Part shown: in pieces, positions 1-16,944 of the stretch | How positions within the stretch are numbered: position 1 is the first letter of the stretch | Layout: each line of letters opens with the position of its first letter | Source: Pseudothioglobus sp. nBUS_23 | Lineage (GTDB): Bacteria; Pseudomonadota; Gammaproteobacteria; PS1; Pseudothioglobaceae | Reading direction: 5' to 3' | Length of the DNA: 32,000 nucleotides | Assembly (NCBI RefSeq): GCF_051201565.1 | Contig: NZ_CP179200.1 | Coordinates: 240,001-272,000, forward strand | Program-made: the position numbers and the translations under genes | Notes under the pieces: model-generated | What the model was told of the DNA's origin: nothing | Databases searched by the model: none | Seen by the model: the letters and a program-made list of their open reading frames with translations, nothing else

Positions 1-618
1 CTGGATGTTGTCAAAGACAATAATGCACTGGATTTAGTTTCTGAAATCTTTGGTCCAAATATCACTCATTTGGGAAACAAAATAAATCTCAAGTTACCTG
101 GTGCTGGAACTGAAGTAAAGTTCCACCAAGACTTTCCTTTTGAGCCGCATTCAAATGAGGACATTATGACGGTGCTTTATTTTTTGGATGATGTGACTCT
201 GGATAATGGGCCATTAGAGGTCGTCCCAGGGACACATAACGGGCCACTCCACTCTCATTGGCAGAATGGTATTTTTACAGGTGCAGTGGATGACAAAGTT
301 ATGGAGTCGAACAAGAACAAAGCTATAAAGTGCACTGGAAAGGCGGGCTCTGCTTGCCTCATGCATTCAAAGTTACTGCATGGTTCAGCGCCGAATTTAT
401 CGGCCCATTCAAGATCTCTCTTTATTGTGACCTATAAGGCTGAGGATGCAGTAGCTCTTTCACCAAACCATCTCCCTAGTGAGCTTGTTGGAATGGTTGT
501 TAGAGGGAAAGAAACTGGAACTGTCAGGTGTACTAGTTACAGTATTGAGTTACCAGAGTACCCTAAAGAGGTCTCTTTCTTTGGCCAACAATCAAAAAGT
601 AAAAACATGGCAATGTAA
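1..618 (+). CDS. Fe(II)/2-oxoglutarate dioxygenase, phytanoyl-CoA dioxygenase (PhyH) family; 5'-partial
   Basis: Frame 1 is open from nt 1 (LDVVKDNNALDLVSEIFGPN...), so the TTG at 70 is not the real start. It has the HxD triad motif KFHQDF, LDNGPLEVVPGTH, and a distal His in LLHGSAPN, all typical of the PhyH fold. Confidence 0.8.
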   Translation: MDVVKDNNALDLVSEIFGPNITHLGNKINLKLPGAGTEVKFHQDFPFEPHSNEDIMTVLYFLDDVTLDNGPLEVVPGTHNGPLHSHWQNGIFTGAVDDKVMESNKNKAIKCTGKAGSACLMHSKLLHGSAPNLSAHSRSLFIVTYKAEDAVALSPNHLPSELVGMVVRGKETGTVRCTSYSIELPEYPKEVSFFGQQSKSKNMAM

Positions 619-703
619 AGCCAATCTTAACTTTTAGTACTTTATACATGAAGGGGATACAATCGACTTAATCAAAAAAATTTCTATAGTCGGCGACGAG
701 CTG

Positions 704-1795
704 GTGATTGACTGGAATGATGGGAATAAAAGCTCACTCTTCAGCTACTGGCTCAGGGATAACTGCCAGATGCCTGAATCAAGAAACGAGAATAATGGCC
801 AAAGACTCTTTAGTGTTAAAGACTTACCTGAAGATGTATCCATAGAGAAGGCTTATAAGGATGAAAACGGAGATGTTTGTATCCTATTTCAGCCTGAAAA
901 TCACTTATCAGTCTTTACGCAAGATTGGCTACTCTCCAATTGCTATGACCTCAATGATCACTTTGATGACAGGAGCGAGAAACAAAAAATGCTCTGGCAA
1001 AAAAATAGTTTTGAGAATGGACTGCCACTAATTGACTATGATTTAATGAGCAAGGATGAGATAAAATTAAAAGCGCTTTGCTCCTTGAGAGACATAGGTT
1101 TTTTTGTTTTAATGGGTGTCCCGACAGTTGAAGGACAAGTATTAAAAGTCATCAGTGAAATGGGTTACACTCGGGAGACCAACTATGGAGCTCTGTTTGA
1201 GGTGAGAACTGAAGTCAACCCAAACAATCTTGCTTATACCAACCTAGGGCTTGGATCTCACACCGATAATCCATACCGAGACCCTGTCCCAACGGTGCAG
1301 CTGCTGCATTGTCTCGAGAGCTCTACCGAGGGCGGAGATTCAATCTTGGTTGACGGCTTTAAGGCCGCCTCAATTCTTCGTGATGAAAGCGAAGAGAGCT
1401 TTCTAACCTTGGCTAGTAACTGGATTAATTATCGATTTACTGATTCTAAAACTGATCTCCGCTCAAGGGTCCCGATGATCGAGTTAAATGACAATCATGA
1501 GATTATCAAGGTCAGATATAACAACCGATCAATCGATACAATTAATGTCCCAAAAGATAAAGTAAGGCTTTTTTATAAGGCCTACCGTCACTGGAGCGAG
1601 GTCATTGAGAGAGACGAATTGAAGATTCAATTCAAGCTTTCTGAGGGGGATTTAATGCTGTTCGATAACACTCGAGTTATGCACGCCAGAACTAAGTTTT
1701 CAAAAACTGGAAAGCGCCACCTACAAGGAGCCTATACAGATTTAGATGGACTTTACAGTCTCCTAAATACATTAGAAGATAAAAAAAATGACTGA
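704..1795 (+). CDS. gamma-butyrobetaine hydroxylase-like / TmpA-like Fe(II)/2OG dioxygenase (TauD/BBOX superfamily)
   Basis: BBOX-type N-terminal domain (LVIDWNDG...LFSYWLRDNC), HxD in GLGSHTDNPY, distal His in RVMHAR, and Arg in GKRHLQGAY. The in-frame coding signal continues upstream of GTG-704 to about 650, so the true start is probably earlier (see finding). Confidence 0.8.
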   Translation: MIDWNDGNKSSLFSYWLRDNCQMPESRNENNGQRLFSVKDLPEDVSIEKAYKDENGDVCILFQPENHLSVFTQDWLLSNCYDLNDHFDDRSEKQKMLWQKNSFENGLPLIDYDLMSKDEIKLKALCSLRDIGFFVLMGVPTVEGQVLKVISEMGYTRETNYGALFEVRTEVNPNNLAYTNLGLGSHTDNPYRDPVPTVQLLHCLESSTEGGDSILVDGFKAASILRDESEESFLTLASNWINYRFTDSKTDLRSRVPMIELNDNHEIIKVRYNNRSIDTINVPKDKVRLFYKAYRHWSEVIERDELKIQFKLSEGDLMLFDNTRVMHARTKFSKTGKRHLQGAYTDLDGLYSLLNTLEDKKND

Positions 1796-2351
1796 GATTA
1801 CTTCGCAAAATGTTGTAGACCTTATTGAAGATATTTTTCTTCGGCGCGGCGCTGAATCATACCTTGGTGAACAGGTCACGATGGCACAGCACATGCTTCA
1901 AACGGCCCAATGTGCTGAAGAGGCTGGCGCTGATGGTGCTCAAATAGTGGCAGCACTTCTTCATGATATAGGTCATTACAAAAACGAAATTCCTGAGTCA
2001 TCTTTGGCAAAGGGAGTGAACAACTTTCATGAGGAGGCAGGTGCAAATTTTCTGGAAGAATATTTCCCGGCTTCCGTTGTCGAACCGATTCGTCAGCATG
2101 TTGCAGCAAAACGTTATTTGTGTGCAGTTAAAGCAGATTATTTTGAGCGCCTATCTGCAGCCTCAGTTCATACTCTTAATCTTCAGGGTGGACCAATGAA
2201 TGAGAAAGAAATAGAAGAATTTGAAAATAATGATTATTTAGATCACTGCATAAATTTAAGATATTGGGATGAAGAGGGGAAAGATCCAGATAGAGAACAT
2301 CCTCCATTTTCATACTACCGCCCATTAATTGACTCTTTATTAAAAAATTAA
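1788..2351 (+). CDS. HD-domain protein with diiron-oxygenase ligand pattern (PhnZ/TmpB-like candidate)
   Basis: 187 aa with H35, H59-D60 (LLHDIGH), H81, H104 (RQHVAAKRY) and D161 (RYWDEEG). This is the H..HD..H..H..D six-ligand pattern. It overlaps the upstream dioxygenase by 8 nt (ATGACTGA). Confidence 0.7.
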   Translation: MTEITSQNVVDLIEDIFLRRGAESYLGEQVTMAQHMLQTAQCAEEAGADGAQIVAALLHDIGHYKNEIPESSLAKGVNNFHEEAGANFLEEYFPASVVEPIRQHVAAKRYLCAVKADYFERLSAASVHTLNLQGGPMNEKEIEEFENNDYLDHCINLRYWDEEGKDPDREHPPFSYYRPLIDSLLKN

Positions 2352-2508
2352 CTATATAAATTTAGTTCTTAACTAGACTCTTTCAAAAGAGTAAGATTAA
2401 GCCCATATACATTAAACCTTGAGGTATATATAATATCCCAGAGTGTTAGATAGGCCTTATTGCACGGAATATTTGTTAATTTTATAAAATGATGGACTAA
2501 ATCAATAA

Positions 2509-2973
2509 ATGAGTAACGGTAAATTATTAATAATAAATGGACCTGGATTATCAGATTTAAGTGATCATAATGAGGTAGCTAATGATGACTTATCTTTGTC
2601 TGTTATAGAGCAAAAATGCATTGAGACTTCAGGTAAATTTGGTCTCGAAGTGGATTTTCGTCAAAATGATGATGAATCTGAGCTTTTGAGTGGCTTGATT
2701 AATGATATTAATAATTTTGATGCTTTCATAATTAATCCAGCTGCACTCTCAAAATCATCAGTGATAAATTACGATGCTTTTAGTTCAGCAATTAGTGAAA
2801 TTAGCAATCAAAGTAAGCCAGTTATTGAAGTCCGTATAGAAAATATCTTCAAGCGGAATGTCAGTAAGCCTTTGCAAGTCCCTGAGAGTGGGTTAGGCTT
2901 TATTGGCGGACTTGGTAAGCATGGTTACGTGCTGGCTATTCGGTCAATTAACAAAAAACTAAGCAATCAATAA
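2509..2973 (+). CDS. type II 3-dehydroquinate dehydratase-like protein, catalytically degenerate paralog
   Basis: Collinear with AroQ (LLIINGP..., IINPAA, EVRIEN, GLGKHGY). The lid Arg/Tyr (REPxxYG) is absent, the His of AYTHTS is absent, and HISN is replaced by RIEN. Its stop directly abuts the ATG of the canonical aroQ. Confidence 0.65.
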   Translation: MSNGKLLIINGPGLSDLSDHNEVANDDLSLSVIEQKCIETSGKFGLEVDFRQNDDESELLSGLINDINNFDAFIINPAALSKSSVINYDAFSSAISEISNQSKPVIEVRIENIFKRNVSKPLQVPESGLGFIGGLGKHGYVLAIRSINKKLSNQ

Positions 2974-3417
2974 ATGAATATATACGTCATAAATGGTCCA
3001 AACATAAATCTTTTAGGTACGCGTGAGCCTGAAATTTATGGCAGAGATACTCTAGAAGGTATTGCTATAGATTGCCAAGAAAAAGCATCAAAAGATGGCC
3101 ATATTGTTAAATTTATGCAGTCTAACTATGAGGGCGAGATTGTAGAATGGATCCAAGATGCAATTATGCAGAAAGTAGATGCGATTGTAATCAATGCTGC
3201 TGCATATACTCATACATCAATCGCCATTCATGATGCATTAAAGTCATATTCAGGTTACAAGGTTGAGTTACACATTTCCAATCCACATCTGCGTGAATCA
3301 TTTCGCCACGTTTCTTTTATTTCTCCCGCAGTTGATGCAGTTATTGCTGGGTTGGGGGCTGAAGGTTACGGCCATGTTGTTGATCTATTATCAGAGTTAC
3401 CAATTAAGGTTAATTAA
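2974..3417 (+). CDS. aroQ: 3-dehydroquinate dehydratase, type II
   Basis: Canonical motifs are all present: VINGPNINLLGTREPEIYG, INAAAYTHTS, ELHISNPHLRESFRH, GLGAEGY. Length is 147 aa. Confidence 0.9.
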   Translation: MNIYVINGPNINLLGTREPEIYGRDTLEGIAIDCQEKASKDGHIVKFMQSNYEGEIVEWIQDAIMQKVDAIVINAAAYTHTSIAIHDALKSYSGYKVELHISNPHLRESFRHVSFISPAVDAVIAGLGAEGYGHVVDLLSELPIKVN

Positions 3418-4922
3418 AGAAGAATAGGGTAATATCTTCTAATTGAAGCCTCAATCTCATCCGATAAATAATTTGGATGGTGATTCAGTAATTCTTTGGC
3501 TTTAGTTTTGGCTCTGCTAAGATGATCTAGGGCTCCTTGCTCTTGCCATACAGTCGGCTCCTCTCGGTCAGCAATCGATGGATAAAAATAATCCCTTTCC
3601 ATAGATAGCATGGTTTCTGGTTGACCTAGAAAATGACCCGTATCACTGACGACAGATTGAATCGAATCAAACTCTAAACTTTGGTTATTGACCTCTATGC
3701 CTCTTATCATTCTATAAACAAGCGACAGCATCTCATCATCCATAACGAAGGCCTCAAATGATGCGCCCAATAAACTTGCCATCATTCCTGATGATTCATA
3801 GATCATATTTCCACCTGCTAAACCGCATGCCAAGGCAGTGAGGGCTTTCTCCATTCCCATTTGAGCATCGGGTGCTTTGGCATCGCTCATACTTGAAGCG
3901 CATCCCGAGGGTAAACCTAGAGAGTTCGACAACTGCGCCGATGCAGCATTGAGTAATGCCATCTCGCCGCTTCCTCCTCTGAAAGCGCCAGTTCTTAAAT
4001 CGATAGCAAGAGGCCAATTACCAAAAATCATTGGGTATCCAGGTTCAAAAACATTCGTCATTATGAGGGTTGAGAGAGTTTCAGCTAAGGTCAGTGAGAG
4101 TGACCCTGCGATTGGTCCAGGTGAGGTGGCTCCTGGCATGGCAGCAATAATATTATTAATCGGAACGCCTCTTTTCATGCAGGCTATGGCAACCATGACC
4201 GCATCTTCGCCAAATTTAAGAGGCGATATGACAGGACTGATATGAGCTTTGCAAAAAGGCTTTTCAGAAAACTTACCTTTCCCACCAAGAGCCATATCAA
4301 ACATGTCAATTATGGGATCAACATGTTCGTCAATATGAAAGCTCATTCCTACCGGCTTGGTTGTTCCTTTGAGAAGGGCGTAGGCGGTATTGACGTCAAG
4401 TTCATAGTTATCATGAACATCGGTTGCAATGCAGCAGCGTGTAAACCAACTTACATTTGGTAACTGATCTATCAGACGAGTAAAGTCATATAAGTCTGCT
4501 AAGGTCGAAGGACGATACTCTTCAGTATCAATATCTAAAGTCTGAACTGCTGCGCCTCCTGTACCGAAATATACTTTATCACCGCCAACGACTATGTCAT
4601 GCTTTGATTCTCGACCGAAGAATGTAAATTCTTTGCAGGAGGATGAGATGATGCTTTCAACCATTGATGCTGGGAAACATAATCTATTCTGAGAGTTAAT
4701 TTTTGCTCCATGTTCTAAGGCCTGCTTTTCAAGAACTTTTGGAACGTCGGTCATTCCAATTTGCTCTAGAATCCGTAATGACTCGTTATAAATTGTTTTG
4801 ACTTGAGAGTCTGAGAGTGGCTTGTATTGACCTCCAGACTGACCAGGGGGGCATGGGTTGATTTCAGGAGCCTTGGCTCTCTGGGCTTGTTTAGCTGCTC
4901 GTGCTGATTGTCTTCTTGCCAT
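3414..4922 (-). CDS. trimethylamine methyltransferase (MttB) superfamily protein, non-pyrrolysine; quaternary-amine methyltransferase candidate
   Basis: 502 aa uninterrupted ORF with no in-frame TAG. It has the Arg/Ala-rich N-terminus (MARRQSARAAKQAQRAK) typical of proteobacterial MttB homologs and a TIM-barrel-length body. An AGGAA RBS is present, and it lies 14 nt downstream of the DMGDH-family gene. Confidence 0.8.
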   Translation of the reverse strand: MARRQSARAAKQAQRAKAPEINPCPPGQSGGQYKPLSDSQVKTIYNESLRILEQIGMTDVPKVLEKQALEHGAKINSQNRLCFPASMVESIISSSCKEFTFFGRESKHDIVVGGDKVYFGTGGAAVQTLDIDTEEYRPSTLADLYDFTRLIDQLPNVSWFTRCCIATDVHDNYELDVNTAYALLKGTTKPVGMSFHIDEHVDPIIDMFDMALGGKGKFSEKPFCKAHISPVISPLKFGEDAVMVAIACMKRGVPINNIIAAMPGATSPGPIAGSLSLTLAETLSTLIMTNVFEPGYPMIFGNWPLAIDLRTGAFRGGSGEMALLNAASAQLSNSLGLPSGCASSMSDAKAPDAQMGMEKALTALACGLAGGNMIYESSGMMASLLGASFEAFVMDDEMLSLVYRMIRGIEVNNQSLEFDSIQSVVSDTGHFLGQPETMLSMERDYFYPSIADREEPTVWQEQGALDHLSRAKTKAKELLNHHPNYLSDEIEASIRRYYPILL

Positions 4923-4936
4923 CGATTATTCCTAGG

Positions 4937-7372
4937 TTACGCTAGTATTCTACTATAGCTTTCATCGTAGGGTCCAAATGGAATGACCTCAACAGAGACC
5001 AATTCTCCTAATAAATCTAAATGCATTTGTGTCCCCTCTTTTGATTTGTCAATGTTTACAAATGCATAGGCAAGGTTGAGATTAACTCTGTGACCCCACT
5101 CACCAGATGTAATTGTTCCAACTACTTTTCCACTCTCCATTAGCGATGCTCCACCATATGCTGGGGCATGTTTGCATGCTACCTTTAGACAGACAAGTTT
5201 TTGATTTGGGCTTTGTTTAATTCTATTTTTTAATGCCTTTTTGCCAATAAAGTTATCTTTCTTTAGATTCACGAAGCGGTCAAGGCCAGTTTCAAAAGGA
5301 TCAAACTCAGTGATTAAATCGGACTTCCATCCCAGAAACCCTTTTTCCATTCTCATAGACTCTACCGCTCTGGACCCAAAGAGTTTTATTCCAAACTCTT
5401 CTCCTGCTTCAGTGAGTGCTAGGTATGCGGCATACAGAGATTCATTGGGTACATGCACTTCATAAGCGAGCTCACCAGAGAAACTCACTGACATTACGGT
5501 GGCCGGAGAAAAGCCAATGAAACATTCTCTTACACTGAGCCATGGAAATGACTCCTTGCTCCAATCTTCGCGACTGCATTTGGAGAGGACTTCTCTCGCT
5601 TTTGGTCCAGCTAAAAGGAGTATTGTTTGGTCATTTGTTAGGCTTTTGATTGAAGTATCTTCATCATCTTTTAATTGCTGAACTAGCCAATCCATATCGT
5701 GAAACTCAGAGGCCGCAGCTGAGCCATACCACATTCTTTTTGGGCCACGGTCTGAAGCTGGAATGTTGGATATAGTGGCTTCACTTTTTATCATTCCAAA
5801 CTCATTAAGAAGGTAACCTAAACCAACTCGGCCTGATTTCTGGGTAATGTTGCCGCAAAACATTCGGTCAACAAAACTGTTGGCATCTGAGCCAGTAATT
5901 TCAAATCGATTAAAGCCATTCACCTCGGTAAGTCCTACATTATTTTGGACATTTTTTACTTCGTTTGCGATAACATCAAATGCTTCATCAAAGTGAAACG
6001 AGAGAGAAGGGTGGAAGTCTTTTGAGGGCTTAATATATTCAACACGCTCCCATCCATTAATCACAGTAAATTCTGCATTTGCATTTGCCATGACTGGAGT
6101 TAGAGGAGTAGTTTTGGCAGGGCGAGCTGCGGGGCGGTGCTCGTGTGGAAAGTGAAAACGAAATTCGTTTTGATAGTCTTCGATAGCCTTTAACGAAGTC
6201 ATTTCAACATTTGTGTGAGAGGTAAATCTTCGAGGATCCAGGCACCACGTATCATAACATGCTTCACCATGAACAATTTGTTGAGCAAGGAGCCAGCCAT
6301 GCCCGCCACCTTCACCAAGGCCTGCTCTTAGACCTATGATGCAGAATGCGTTTTCTTTTCCAGGAATTTTTCCAACCAGTGGGGCTCCATCAATTGTATA
6401 AGTAATTGGGCCATTAATGACACTTCTTATTCCAGCATTCATTAACGCAGGCATTCGATCAAATGCTCCCTCTAATACATCTGTAACTCTCTCTAAATCA
6501 TCTGGACAAAGAGCATTGACAAAGTTTGGATCAATCCCATCCATTCCCCATGGTTTACAATTCTGTTCATAGAATCCAATCAAAAGTCCATTCTTATCTT
6601 GTCGACAATAATAGTCAGATATTGGGCACCTTAAAAGAGGCATTCGGCGACCTGAATCTATAATCTCTTGAATATCTTCGGTCAGAAAATACTGATGCTC
6701 CATTGAGGCTACTGGATGATGAACACCCATCATTGCGCCAACCTCATTAACCCTATATCCGCAGGCATTTACAACAACATCACAATCAACCCCACCATTT
6801 TTGGTGGTTACTTTCCAGGTCCCATCCTGGTATTGCTCTAGAGCAGTTACTGGAGTATTTGTGTAGACCTCAGCGCCAGCCTGTCGGGCTTTTCGCGCCA
6901 AAGAGTGACATAACTGATATGGATCTATATCACCATCTAATGGATCCCACAACCCACCAATTAAGTTTTTTGTTGAAATTAATGGGTGACGTCGATGACA
7001 TTCTTTGGCATCTATTACTTCAAAATTAACATCCATGCCCCGAGCCATTGAGGCGAAGTGATGATAACCTTGCATTTGCTCTTTGGTATTGGCAAGCCTT
7101 ATTCCACCATCACCATGATTATAGTTAATTGGATAATCAGGGTCGTCAGCCAATTCTTTGTATAGATTAATGGAATGTGTTTTTAAACCAACCATTGTTT
7201 GATTCATTCCAAAATTAGTAACCTGAGCTGCTGAGTGCCAAGTCGTACCACTAGTCAAATCATTTCGCTCAAGAAGAACAACATCTGTCCAACCCTCTTG
7301 GGTCAGATGATAAAGGGTCGAGCAGCCTGCAATACCACCGCCAATGACAACAACCTTTGTTCTAGTTTTCAT
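4937..7372 (-). CDS. dimethylglycine/sarcosine dehydrogenase family flavoprotein (DAO FAD domain fused to GcvT-type folate-binding domain)
   Basis: 811 aa. N-terminal VVVIGGGIAGCS Rossmann motif, flavinylation-type His in SGTTWHSAAQ, and a C-terminal aminomethyltransferase-like region. AGGAG RBS. Confidence 0.85.
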   Translation of the reverse strand: MKTRTKVVVIGGGIAGCSTLYHLTQEGWTDVVLLERNDLTSGTTWHSAAQVTNFGMNQTMVGLKTHSINLYKELADDPDYPINYNHGDGGIRLANTKEQMQGYHHFASMARGMDVNFEVIDAKECHRRHPLISTKNLIGGLWDPLDGDIDPYQLCHSLARKARQAGAEVYTNTPVTALEQYQDGTWKVTTKNGGVDCDVVVNACGYRVNEVGAMMGVHHPVASMEHQYFLTEDIQEIIDSGRRMPLLRCPISDYYCRQDKNGLLIGFYEQNCKPWGMDGIDPNFVNALCPDDLERVTDVLEGAFDRMPALMNAGIRSVINGPITYTIDGAPLVGKIPGKENAFCIIGLRAGLGEGGGHGWLLAQQIVHGEACYDTWCLDPRRFTSHTNVEMTSLKAIEDYQNEFRFHFPHEHRPAARPAKTTPLTPVMANANAEFTVINGWERVEYIKPSKDFHPSLSFHFDEAFDVIANEVKNVQNNVGLTEVNGFNRFEITGSDANSFVDRMFCGNITQKSGRVGLGYLLNEFGMIKSEATISNIPASDRGPKRMWYGSAAASEFHDMDWLVQQLKDDEDTSIKSLTNDQTILLLAGPKAREVLSKCSREDWSKESFPWLSVRECFIGFSPATVMSVSFSGELAYEVHVPNESLYAAYLALTEAGEEFGIKLFGSRAVESMRMEKGFLGWKSDLITEFDPFETGLDRFVNLKKDNFIGKKALKNRIKQSPNQKLVCLKVACKHAPAYGGASLMESGKVVGTITSGEWGHRVNLNLAYAFVNIDKSKEGTQMHLDLLGELVSVEVIPFGPYDESYSRILA

Positions 7373-7492: not shown

Positions 7493-8389
7493 ATGAAATT
7501 CAGATCTTTTGACTCATTTAGAGTATTTGAAAAAGTTGCTCAACTCGAGAGTATTACTCTAGCAGCAGAAGCATTAAATTTATCAAAAAGTGCCATTAGT
7601 TATCAGATTACTAAGCTTGAGAACGAGCTTGGATTTTTACTTTTTGATCGTGTTAATTCAAGATTGGTATTAACAACTAAAGGTCGAAGATTATGGTACG
7701 TTGCTGAATCATCATTGAATCAAATTGAGAGAGAGATTAACCTGCTTCGTGGTGAGAATTCAGGGACAGTCAAAGTAGGAATTGTCTCTTCATTTGCTTC
7801 AAGATGGCTATCACCAAGATTAACTAATTTTTTTGAGCAATGTCCCGATTTAGGTCTAAAAATTGAGTCTATTAATTCAATAGATGAGTTTAGTAATGCT
7901 GATTTTTCATTAGCCATATTATGGGGAGATTCCTGGAGTGATTTTGAGTATGAATTATTAATGCCCACTTCATCATTCGTTCTTGGTAACAGGAAAATCT
8001 ATGAACAAACTAGATCCATTACGTTAGAGGAAGCAATGAAAAAAATTCCTTTGCTTAATGACGGTTTTTATGGAGGTAATGGAGGAATGCAGGCTTGGCA
8101 TAGGCAAGCTAATCTTGAATATAATCCATCAAAGAGTAGCCTCAAAATTACTGATGCCTCTACAAGACTTCAGGCAGTTGTTGATGGACAAGGTATTGCC
8201 TTGTGGGATGAGTTAGTAAATGAAGAGATTGAGTCTGGAAAATTATTTTATATTTCTGATATTATGCTTCCAGGTTTTGGTTATCACCTGGTATATAAAA
8301 ATAAAAATTCATTATCTATTGAAGAAAAAAATTTTTGTAAATGGATCAAGAGTGAGCTTCCGAAACAAACTAATAGTAAAACTCTATAG
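7493..8389 (+). CDS. LysR-family transcriptional regulator
   Basis: N-terminal wHTH (FEKVAQLESITLAAEALNLSKSAISYQITKLENELGFLLFDR) followed by a LysR substrate-binding domain. It is divergent from the catabolic operon. Confidence 0.9.
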   Translation: MKFRSFDSFRVFEKVAQLESITLAAEALNLSKSAISYQITKLENELGFLLFDRVNSRLVLTTKGRRLWYVAESSLNQIEREINLLRGENSGTVKVGIVSSFASRWLSPRLTNFFEQCPDLGLKIESINSIDEFSNADFSLAILWGDSWSDFEYELLMPTSSFVLGNRKIYEQTRSITLEEAMKKIPLLNDGFYGGNGGMQAWHRQANLEYNPSKSSLKITDASTRLQAVVDGQGIALWDELVNEEIESGKLFYISDIMLPGFGYHLVYKNKNSLSIEEKNFCKWIKSELPKQTNSKTL

Positions 8390-8972
8390 TTGAGACTGAA
8401 ACATCGGAAATATGATCTCTGCCATAGGCAACAATACCAAAACTCCTAATTTTTTTAGGATCTAATCTCGAATCTTTTGACCATCTGCGTTCGAATTTAT
8501 TGAAAGGGAGGTCAATCATTTTCCAATCTGCATCAGCTTTGAAAGTTGTAGCATAATAGTCAGAGGGAGACCAGCTTTCATTGGTTCTAATATGTATGTA
8601 ATAGGTTTCTCCATTTCCTCTTACATTAAGACGAACACCTTGGAGGTTTTTTCCCTCTTTTTCTGAGTTGGCGAATGAGACACTGGCTCGCAACTGAATG
8701 AAGCCACCATTATTCGCAGTGCTAACGTTCCCTGTAAGTCTCGCATAATACATTTCTCCGTCTTGCTCAAGTGAGACTTGACCATCTGAGACTCCACCCA
8801 TTACGCGATCGCTAACATATTGCCAGTACCTCCCACTGTCAGCATTAAATGGATAAGAGAGAGTCTCCTCATCTGCAAAAGTCTTTGTGTTGAATACGAG
8901 CATTGATAAAGACATGAGAACTAGAGTTAAAAAATGATTTAATTTATTTATATAAATGGATTTAAAGCGCAT
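8370..8972 (-). CDS. secreted CIA30-domain protein (complex I intermediate-associated protein 30-like)
   Basis: Signal-peptide-like N-terminus (LTLVLMSLSMLVFNTKTFA/DEE). The WQYVSDRVMGGVSDG motif is characteristic of CIA30 domains. Its 3' end overlaps lysR by 20 nt, convergently. Confidence 0.6.
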   Translation of the reverse strand: MRFKSIYINKLNHFLTLVLMSLSMLVFNTKTFADEETLSYPFNADSGRYWQYVSDRVMGGVSDGQVSLEQDGEMYYARLTGNVSTANNGGFIQLRASVSFANSEKEGKNLQGVRLNVRGNGETYYIHIRTNESWSPSDYYATTFKADADWKMIDLPFNKFERRWSKDSRLDPKKIRSFGIVAYGRDHISDVSVSTIEFYY

Positions 8973-16362: not shown

Positions 16363-16944
16363 ATGGTTAAGATTAGACTAGCCCGAGGTGGAGCCAAGAA
16401 AAACCCTTTTTATTCGATTGTAGCAACAGACTCTAGAAAGAGAAGAGACAGTGGTTACATTGAGCGTATTGGATACTTTAATCCTGTTGCTCGCGGACAA
16501 GAAGTCAGGCTTCAACTCGAAGAAGACAGACTGTCATACTGGATTTCTCAGGGAGCACAGATTTCAGATCGCGTCAAGCAGCTTGTTAAGGAATATAAAG
16601 ACCCATCTATTCGTGAAAAGCAGTTAGCAATGCAGGCAGCTAAAGCTGATGAAAAGGCTAAAAAGATTGCTGCAGAAGAAAAAGCAAAGGCAGATTTAGA
16701 GGCTAAAGAGGCTGCTGAGGCCGCAGCTCAAGAAGCGGCAGCAGAAGAAGCCGCAGCAGCAGAAGCAGAAGCAGAAGCTCCAGCAGAAGAAGCTCCAGCA
16801 GCAGAAGCAGAAGCAGAAGCTCCAGCAGCAGAAGCAGAAGCTCCAGCAGAAGAAGCTCCAGCAGAAGAAGCTCCAGCAGAAGAAGCAGAAGCTCCAGCAG
16901 AAGAAGCCGCAGAAAAGCCAGCTGAAGAGCCTGAAGAAAAATAA
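16363..16944 (+). CDS. rpsP: 30S ribosomal protein S16 with long C-terminal Ala/Glu/Pro-rich extension
   Basis: The first ~80 aa ([41 protein letters not shown]...) form canonical S16. The remaining ~113 aa are low-complexity KA/EA/AEEAP repeats. AAGGAG RBS, with a TATAAT at 16313-16318. Confidence 0.92.
16735..16912 (+). repeat. in-frame imperfect tandem repeat (15/18-bp units GCAGAAGAAGCTCCA / GCAGAAGCAGAAGCTCCA) inside rpsP
   Basis: Visible directly in the sequence. It encodes AEEAP/AEAEAP units and also creates the spurious antisense ORF 16728..16955. Confidence 0.85.

Follow-up and report, generated by a model that had tools for sequence, protein, structure and literature searches.

The systems closest to the locus described here break the C-P bond of a phosphonate oxidatively, with an Fe(II)/2-oxoglutarate (2OG) hydroxylase followed by a diiron HD-domain oxygenase. 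For 2-(trimethylammonio)ethylphosphonate (TMAEP), these are TmpA and TmpB of Leisingera caerulea (structures 6npb and 6npa), reportedly the work of Rajakovich et al. in 2019; the TmpAB route is said to have been characterized in one alphaproteobacterium and is, to our knowledge, the least studied oxidative phosphonate pathway. PhnY*/PhnZ from the marine fosmid HF130_AEPn_1 convert 2-aminoethylphosphonate (2-AEP) to glycine and inorganic phosphate (Pi), and GmPhnY*/GmPhnZ1 from Gimesia maris convert methylphosphonate to formate and Pi, the hydroxylase of both pairs being of the PhyH type. Here, we studied a three-gene locus at the start of a 32,000-nucleotide (nt) stretch of the gammaproteobacterium Pseudothioglobus sp. 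nBUS_23 (RefSeq assembly GCF_051201565.1, contig NZ_CP179200.1, positions 240,001 to 272,000, forward strand), referred to below as the window. In this locus, a PhyH-family gene (gene 1) is followed by a TmpA-type gene (gene 2) and a TmpB-type gene (gene 3). Our preferred reading, to which we assign a probability of roughly 0.55 on the basis of sequence comparisons, is that the TmpAB pair is the working core and that the PhyH protein is a probably cotranscribed, lineage-specific neighbor and not an obligate part of the pathway. The layout of the locus is as follows.

1 to 621, plus strand: gene 1, PhyH-family Fe(II)/2OG oxygenase, 3' 70% of the gene; frame 1 open from nt 1, stop at 619-621, 205 codons.
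622 to 661, plus strand: spacer between genes 1 and 2, with a Shine-Dalgarno-like AAGGGG at 651-656.
662 to 1795, plus strand: gene 2, predicted TmpA-type TMAEP hydroxylase; TGA at 1793-1795, start uncertain (ATC 662, ATC 671, or GTG 704).
1788 to 1795, plus strand: overlap of genes 2 and 3, ATGACTGA, 8 nt, with the gene 2 stop lying over the gene 3 start.
1788 to 2351, plus strand: gene 3, predicted TmpB-type mixed-valent diiron HD-domain oxygenase, 187 amino acids (aa); ATG at 1788, TAA at 2349-2351.

The first-pass annotation of this DNA had described three codirectional genes in a locus cut by the window edge, genes 2 and 3 being coupled through an 8-nt overlap. The open reading frames and the Pfam domains agree with that layout, and the overlap proved exact; genes 2 and 3 are thus translationally coupled, with the HD gene directly 3' of the TmpA-type gene. 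Along similar lines, the Leisingera pair has the same two folds, the same gene order, and translational coupling; tmpA and tmpB overlap by 4 nt on Aliiroseovarius and Labrenzia plasmids, and their annotated ends in Phyllobacterium have 1 nt in common.

The proteins were compared with Pfam and NCBIfam profiles, the latter having curated cutoffs. The Pfam label for gene 3 is "HD" only. The HD oxygenase branch has as its hallmarks a six-ligand H...HD...H...H...D pattern and a substrate-gating YxxE loop, Y24/E27 in PhnZ and Y30/E33 in TmpB (PMC8177086, from which we took the motif definition). Gene 3 carries all of these: the ligands H35, H59, D60, H81, H104, and D161 are, together with Glu28, invariant in an alignment of eight sequences (gene 3 plus seven Thioglobaceae, alphaproteobacterial, and actinobacterial relatives), and the loop Y25-L-G-E28 aligns with Y30/E33 of TmpB. 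In a pairwise alignment, the ligands fall on PhnZ residues 34, 58, 59, 80, 104, and 161, which is the near coincidence of numbering noted in the first-pass annotation. The best match in the Protein Data Bank was the TmpB structure 6npa (E value of 2.5e-55, 190 bits, 50% identity), ahead of PhnZ (5e-34, 121 bits); given values of this order, the resemblance reflects homology and not chance. The best NCBIfam model was also that of TmpB (equivalog NF049941), while the GmPhnZ1-type model gave 151 bits against a cutoff of 300. Taken together, gene 3 is, by sequence, a PhnZ/TmpB-type diiron HD oxygenase, as had been proposed over a phosphohydrolase, and a divergent TmpB ortholog.

Gene 2 has a TauD domain and a GBBH-like N domain, and it matched TmpA (6npb) with 324 bits and 45% identity, compared to 187 bits and 32% identity for human gamma-butyrobetaine hydroxylase (BBOX). 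On the TmpA equivalog model NF049936, it scored 424 bits, above the cutoff of 400. TmpA binds the phosphonate through N187, N287, and R288, and human BBOX has just the two Asn residues (PMC9296572, our source for the list of contact residues). In our alignment, gene 2 keeps all three, and the residue of human BBOX that aligns with R288 is Ala. The HxD...H metal triad and the 2OG-binding Arg are conserved as in TmpA. The codons are located as follows.

1226-1228, 1523-1525, and 1526-1528, plus strand: Asn, Asn, and Arg of gene 2, equivalents of TmpA N187, N287, and R288.
1259-1261, 1265-1267, 1682-1684, and 1715-1717, plus strand: His, Asp, and His of the gene 2 metal triad and the 2OG Arg, from the alignment.

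At the positions of the aromatic cage of human BBOX, which we take to be Y177, W181, Y194, and Y366, gene 2 has Y, F, Y, and Y, the same as TmpA. Where human BBOX has the Cys-rich WLRDNCPCSDC, presumably its N-terminal Cys3His zinc site, gene 2 reads WLRDNCQMPESR. Thus, gene 2 shares with the human and Pseudomonas BBOX enzymes the two-domain fold and the cage for a trimethylammonium group but differs from them in the phosphonate-binding Arg, in the lack of the zinc site, and in having an HD partner. Genuine gamma-butyrobetaine hydroxylase activity for gene 2, with gene 3 as an HD phosphohydrolase and no phosphonate pathway at all, would account for the bare "HD" label of Pfam and for the score of gene 2 on the older BBOX model TIGR02409 (478 bits, cutoff of 415). 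It would leave unexplained the six diiron ligands, the YxxE loop, the strong TmpB and PhnZ matches, the phosphonate Arg, the missing zinc site, and a TmpA match far above that to BBOX, and it runs counter to the TauD-HD gene pair itself, a signature of the TmpAB pathway that was seen in ca. 40 of the 80 metagenomic loci collected with TmpB as the anchor (77 of them from outside the Thioglobaceae) and on three alphaproteobacterial plasmids. We consider this explanation highly improbable and predict that gene 2 is TmpA type, a divergent TmpA ortholog and not a true gamma-butyrobetaine hydroxylase, as the first-pass annotation had suggested.

Homology and the conserved substrate-binding residues point to TMAEP, or a very similar quaternary-ammonium phosphonate, as the substrate of genes 2 and 3, from which we infer the following chemistry. 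The TmpA-type enzyme would use Fe(II), 2OG, and O2 to hydroxylate TMAEP at C1, and the diiron HD oxygenase would cleave the C-P bond of (R)-1-hydroxy-TMAEP oxidatively, yielding glycine betaine and phosphate. To judge from the gene context, a neighboring MttB/MtgB-like or BHMT-like enzyme, followed by a dimethylglycine dehydrogenase (DMGDH), would probably demethylate the betaine. The output of the locus would then be phosphorus and methyl groups, possibly also nitrogen on further demethylation. Apart from the identities given above, this locus differs from the Leisingera system in that no divergent LysR gene stands beside the pair, a PhyH gene lies directly upstream, and the whole is chromosomal, in a streamlined gammaproteobacterium, beside betaine-demethylation genes.

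The 5' end of gene 2 is unusual. There is no conserved canonical start codon, and protein conservation with relatives reaches back to about nt 662, an ATC preceded by AAGGGG. Because of this, and because GTG 704 is missing in several relatives (loci L004, L005, and L010), the GTG is probably not the true start, a view based on these alignments; in L029 and L030, gene 2 begins at an ATG some codons upstream of the GTG position. An out-of-frame ATG at 648 opens a seven-codon mini-open reading frame whose stop (TAA 669-671) abuts the second ATC (671). Automatic gene callers cut the N terminus of gene 2 in relatives, giving 340 to 343 aa instead of ca. 377.

Turning to gene 1, the window holds the C-terminal part of a protein of ca. 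291 aa, and since the gene is cut by the edge, its N terminus and the upstream content are visible only in relatives. Residues are numbered on P0001, a full-length homolog that is 99% identical. The Pfam assignment is PF05721 (PhyH; E value of 1.5e-24), and the 2OG oxygenase residues H128, D130, H213, and R224 were invariant across 11 homologs; in the window they lie as follows.

124-126, 130-132, 379-381, and 412-414, plus strand: His, Asp, distal His, and 2OG Arg codons of gene 1 (HxD...H plus Arg).

The protein ends in a conserved C-terminal tail, LPEYPKEVSFFGQQ. The homologs of gene 1 whose sources are named, together with the 33 genome loci treated below, assign the window to the Thioglobaceae (Candidatus Thioglobus, Candidatus Pseudothioglobus, and the SUP05 cluster); exact copies of gene 3 were found only on contigs of <2 kb, and the GC content of all three genes, overall and at third codon positions, gave no signal of recent transfer. 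An AlphaFold2 model of P0001, made from an 11-sequence alignment with homologs at least 72% identical, had a mean predicted local distance difference test score of 33.6 and was unusable.

The best matches of gene 1 were to ectoine hydroxylase, both among NCBIfam models (TIGR02408, 63 bits, cutoff of 336) and among solved structures (EctD, E value of 1.6e-10); both proteins are classed as 2OG hydroxylases of small zwitterions, but with such scores gene 1 clearly belongs to another subfamily. The first-pass annotation had asked for the placement of gene 1 against PhnY*, which we judged on the G. maris-type methylphosphonate hydroxylase model NF052437 and on a Dietzia homolog, with the HF130 PhnY* outside the comparison. 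Gene 1 scored 31 bits on this model, against a cutoff of 500. A PhyH-HD pair carried by Dietzia and Rhodococcus plasmids served as the positive control; the Dietzia PhyH reached 261 bits on the same model and its HD partner reached 202 bits on the GmPhnZ1-type model, and the identity between gene 1 and this PhnY*-like protein was 25%. Other plasmid PhnZ matches were discarded as sources of a PhnY*: those of Nostoc, Variovorax, and Hymenobacter are C-P-lyase-associated or solitary HD genes without a hydroxylase, and those of Asticcacaulis and Novosphingobium also have no hydroxylase alongside. Gene 1 thus encodes an intact 2OG oxygenase of an uncharacterized PhyH subfamily, related to PhnY* at the superfamily level only, and its substrate is most likely some other small zwitterionic or N-methylated solute.

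The association of the three genes was followed through 33 species-representative genome loci of the Thioglobaceae. In 26 of them, as in each of the 10 Thioglobaceae-type metagenomic loci, TmpA comes directly after PhyH on the same strand, and TmpB follows TmpA wherever the contig reaches that far; the trio is also present in cultured strains, e.g., Candidatus Pseudothioglobus sp. Uisw_041 (L022). Two further loci end within PhyH, and five loci (L020, L023, L025, L028, and L031) form a sister clade in the PhyH tree. In this sister clade, no TmpA or TmpB gene was found near PhyH, four of the five loci having visible downstream sequence: PhyH adjoins ftsK in L020, L025, and L031 (followed by a MORN-repeat gene in L020 and L031) and has different neighbors in L028, while L023 was too short for judgment. 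Two loci carrying the Thioglobaceae trio at 70 to 100% identity, L009 (CALKDH010000028.1) and L039 (JBLIAG010000095.1), come from records labeled "PS1 clade bacterium" and "Bacteriovoracaceae bacterium," probably through binning or labeling errors.

Outside the family, the components were found apart. Within 10 kb of seven PhyH homologs with 53 to 59% identity, from Acidimicrobiia, Poriferihabitaceae, SAR116, and Halieaceae, there was neither a TmpA nor an HD gene. Most of these homologs that were examined adjoin genes for EutA-like (216 bits), M24/creatinase-like, GbcA-like Rieske, and TRAP transporter proteins, neighbors that, by their family assignments, look typical of compatible-solute or betaine catabolism. 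Conversely, a PhyH of the gene 1 type was present in none of the 77 metagenomic TmpB loci from outside the Thioglobaceae (one had an EctD-like PhyH on the strand opposite to TmpB), and the three alphaproteobacterial plasmids carry LysR-TmpA-TmpB only. Some PhyH-free TmpAB pairs are close relatives: those of L140 and L142-L147 are 71% and 77 to 78% identical to the pair of the window, as near as the pairs of other Thioglobaceae genera, and lie in different contexts. PhyH beside an HD oxygenase was therefore a feature of the Thioglobaceae site only and did not recur across taxa, and given both TmpAB pairs without PhyH and PhyH genes without TmpAB, PhyH is not an obligate partner. In the Acidimicrobiia example (L042, 9989-12803), a 55%-identical PhyH is followed by the EutA-like gene (216 bits, cutoff of 318) and an M24/creatinase-like hydrolase and is preceded by a methionine-gamma-lyase-like pyridoxal phosphate enzyme, an arrangement that resembles an ectoine/hydroxyectoine utilization cluster.

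Within the Thioglobaceae, PhyH and TmpA lie on the same strand with 40 to 80 nt between them. In eight relatives from across the family, CATAAT and GGAGG are invariant directly upstream of PhyH, and the spacer 5' of TmpA is weakly conserved. A consensus promoter and terminator scan, whose site counts were not above chance and which was used solely for the absence of an intergenic terminator-like hairpin, found no such hairpin in the spacer. With no terminator there and the only conserved element upstream of PhyH, cotranscription is likely, and PhyH is probably expressed with TmpAB from that promoter-like element.

This arrangement fits the idea, put forward in the first-pass annotation, of two hydroxylases preceding a single C-P-cleaving enzyme. 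The gene order PhyH, TmpA, TmpB holds; the shared pathway role of PhyH, as it was stated, is not supported, given the distance from PhnY*, the single syntenic site, and the nonobligate associations. In its fullest form, the idea makes PhyH a third type of phosphonate C1-hydroxylase, unrelated at the family level to both PhnY* and TmpA, acting on aminoethylphosphonates with no or incomplete N-methylation, or on another phosphonate, which we regard as doubtful, though worth keeping in view. That the single TmpB-type oxygenase cleaves the products of both hydroxylases is, in our estimation, similarly tentative. A PhnY*-like PhyH would turn 2-AEP, N-methyl-AEP, N,N-dimethyl-AEP, or methylphosphonate into glycine, sarcosine, dimethylglycine, or formate, plus Pi, with one HD oxygenase serving both hydroxylases. 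We hold this to be unlikely on balance, even though several observations agree with it besides the close, terminator-free spacing, the conserved element, and the constant adjacency at the Thioglobaceae site. PhnY* enzymes also belong to the PhyH superfamily; GmPhnZ cleaves both hydroxymethylphosphonate and (R)-1-hydroxy-2-aminoethylphosphonate, a precedent for one PhnZ-type enzyme accepting more than one hydroxylated phosphonate (PMC10574752); a second 2OG oxygenase occurs at other TmpAB-type loci (see below); the adjoining DMGDH could take dimethylglycine or sarcosine; and N-methyl-AEP, which is common in nature, requires accessory enzymes for its breakdown by the hydrolytic pathway, so that there is precedent for broadening AEP pathways in this way (PMC10590968).

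Conserved adjacency, however, had to be discarded as a proof of PhyH function. In relatives, the genes upstream of PhyH are always FolC, FxsA, TrmB, an exo/endonuclease-phosphatase, a phosphoribosyltransferase, and a divergent NfeD, and this FolC-to-NfeD neighborhood is syntenic family-wide, unrelated housekeeping genes included; since the whole neighborhood is equally syntenic, the PhyH-TmpA adjacency in one family is weak evidence. Moreover, in two lineages PhyH and TmpA are separated by unrelated genes. One is the SUP05 single-cell genome L032 (8905-9879), with a 324-aa secreted protein (signal peptide, HELYH), from which we conclude that the PhyH-TmpA junction tolerates insertions. Against a PhnY*-like role stand also the better match of PhyH to ectoine hydroxylase than to GmPhnY* and, as described above, its homologs without an HD oxygenase and the close TmpAB pairs without PhyH. 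With respect to the described PhyH-HD systems, TmpA separates gene 1 from the HD gene, unlike in PhnY*/PhnZ, and gene 3 is nearer to TmpB than to PhnZ; compared to GmPhnY*/GmPhnZ1, neither gene 1 nor gene 3 reaches the model scores of the Dietzia pair.

One pattern speaks for the idea of a second hydroxylase: the TmpAB pair acts like a mobile core whose accessory genes change from locus to locus, extra 2OG oxygenases being recurrent among these.

Thioglobaceae site: accessory PhyH.
L012 (between PhyH and TmpA) and L140: accessory HalD-like oxygenase.
L137, flanking the HD gene: accessory second TmpA-like gene.

L140, a circular contig of 2.76 Mb with 45% GC, encodes a HalD-like 2OG oxygenase, a dehydrogenase, TmpA, TmpB, and a 434-aa protein, with a transposase gene close by on the opposite strand. 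The HalD-like genes of L012 (10904-11692) and L140 (3010-3885), both upstream of TmpA, are 27% identical to each other, and L012 thus has three 2OG oxygenases before one HD oxygenase. In the high-GC metagenomic locus L137 (4856-7759), an HD oxygenase gene stands directly between a TmpA-like gene (395 bits) and a more divergent second one (247 bits), an independent instance of two hydroxylases flanking one HD oxygenase. A 432- to 434-aa protein is encoded 3' of TmpB in several Thioglobaceae (L029, 12626-13924; L033; L038; L152) and is absent from the window; it scored 19.6 bits on a methylcobalamin:coenzyme M methyltransferase model, and because an 80%-identical copy exists in the unrelated L140 (6580-7884), it travels with TmpAB. 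Neither for this protein nor for the 324-aa one did Pfam and NCBIfam return anything informative. In L142-L147, TmpA and TmpB are followed by a PF01663 phosphodiesterase/alkaline-phosphatase-family gene (5617-6447), found directly 3' of TmpB on the Labrenzia plasmid L050 as well (7570-8415); its product may free TMAEP from an esterified form, e.g., a phosphonolipid head group.

Downstream of the trio, a gap of 157 nt holds a promoter-like site, which suggests that the trio is a transcription unit separate from the following pair of aroQ genes. As in most Thioglobaceae loci, these are two tandem type II dehydroquinase-like genes (2509-3417), the second a normal aroQ (175 bits) and the first a divergent paralog (68 bits, under every NCBIfam cutoff). 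Beyond them lie the betaine genes.

2406 to 2434, plus strand: promoter-like site TATACA-17-TATAAT, 10/12 matches; based on the consensus alone, with such sites no more numerous in the region than chance would give.
3414 to 4922, minus strand: MttB-superfamily methyltransferase without pyrrolysine, MtgB-like (Pfam/NCBIfam).
4937 to 7372, minus strand: dimethylglycine-dehydrogenase-type protein, DAO and GCV_T domains, 811 aa; presence varies among genomes.
7493 to 8389, plus strand: GcvA-like LysR regulator, divergent from the DMGDH gene; part of the variable betaine block.

The block between aroQb and a CIA30-like gene varies among genomes. It contains MttB, DMGDH, and LysR in the window; elsewhere it holds BHMT-like and DMGDH genes, BHMT-like, MttB, and DMGDH genes (L033), or DMGDH alone (L022), and it is empty in L005. 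Many genomes have, in the MttB position, a gene of the homocysteine S-methyltransferase family that its context marks as BHMT-like, and the block resembles an island for betaine demethylation in which the first-step enzymes are interchangeable. MtgBCD, the MtgB-type cobalamin-dependent demethylation of betaine, has been reported in SUP05 (PMC12478193). By their context, the MttB/MtgB-like gene would provide the sink for the glycine betaine product and DMGDH would provide the next demethylation step; the presence of MttB-like, BHMT-like, and DMGDH genes nearby thus fits with glycine betaine as the product. The LysR gene is best considered a member of this block and a putative regulator, with no control of the trio implied. 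The remainder of the window is housekeeping (amt, glnK, acnB, purB, rpsP, rimM, a SulP permease, and others); the open reading frame for ribosomal protein S16 (16363-16944) has 193 aa, more than twice the usual length, with the Pfam match confined to residues 8 to 68.

This setting raises another possibility for PhyH, namely, that it works on the same carbon skeleton at a site other than C1, N-demethylating TMAEP or the betaine products through N-methyl hydroxylation or, as a variant covered by the same estimate, hydroxylating C2 with release of trimethylamine. The context agrees with it, both in the methyl-removing enzymes surrounding the locus and in the GbcA-like Rieske betaine oxygenases that adjoin PhyH homologs elsewhere. 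We found no sequence tie between PhyH and known 2OG N-demethylases and no phosphonatase for a phosphonoacetaldehyde product, and the nonobligate association counts against this possibility as much as it does against a second C1-hydroxylase; it seems to us a distant contender.

Several points weigh against the reading of TmpAB as a core for TMAEP with PhyH as a neighbor. At the Thioglobaceae site, PhyH and TmpA were always together (ca. 35 loci), co-stranded and closely spaced, and the recurrence of extra 2OG oxygenases at TmpAB loci may mean that they have a pathway role after all. No TMAEP transporter was found in the window, as first noted, or upstream of nt 1 in relatives, where there are housekeeping genes only. 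Gene 3 scored 259 bits on the TmpB equivalog model, below its cutoff of 300 (an alphaproteobacterial TmpB reached 351 bits), and 199 bits on a generic Phn-HD model with a cutoff of 215, while gene 2 scored higher on the older BBOX model than on that of TmpA. With gene 3 below both cutoffs and gene 2 placed in this way, the pair represents a divergent branch, whose preference for the N substituent could differ.

The chemistry of TmpAB is already known, and the core enzymes add new members to known families; what is new is the architecture of the locus. In the literature searched, we found no paper tying phnZ or tmpB to SUP05 or Thioglobus and no description of the three-gene arrangement. A tmpB-type clade has been detected in ocean data at an abundance comparable to that of phnJ (Murphy et al., PMC8316502).

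These results place a divergent and well-conserved TmpAB pair in the Thioglobaceae (SUP05/Arctic96BD-19), which are among the most abundant bacteria of the dark ocean, with genes for the consumption of glycine betaine, its predicted product, alongside. From this, trimethylated aminophosphonates seem to be a real source of phosphorus and methyl groups in mesopelagic water, and some of what ocean surveys record as "phnZ" may be tmpB. If PhyH does act on phosphonates, it would represent a new hydroxylase class and open partly methylated AEPs to an oxidative route for the first time, and TmpAB pairs would act as modular cores, drawing in PhyH, HalD-like, or second TmpA-like 2OG oxygenases for a wider substrate range. 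The SUP05/Arctic96BD-19 clade would then couple the recovery of phosphonate phosphorus to the catabolism of methylated amines.

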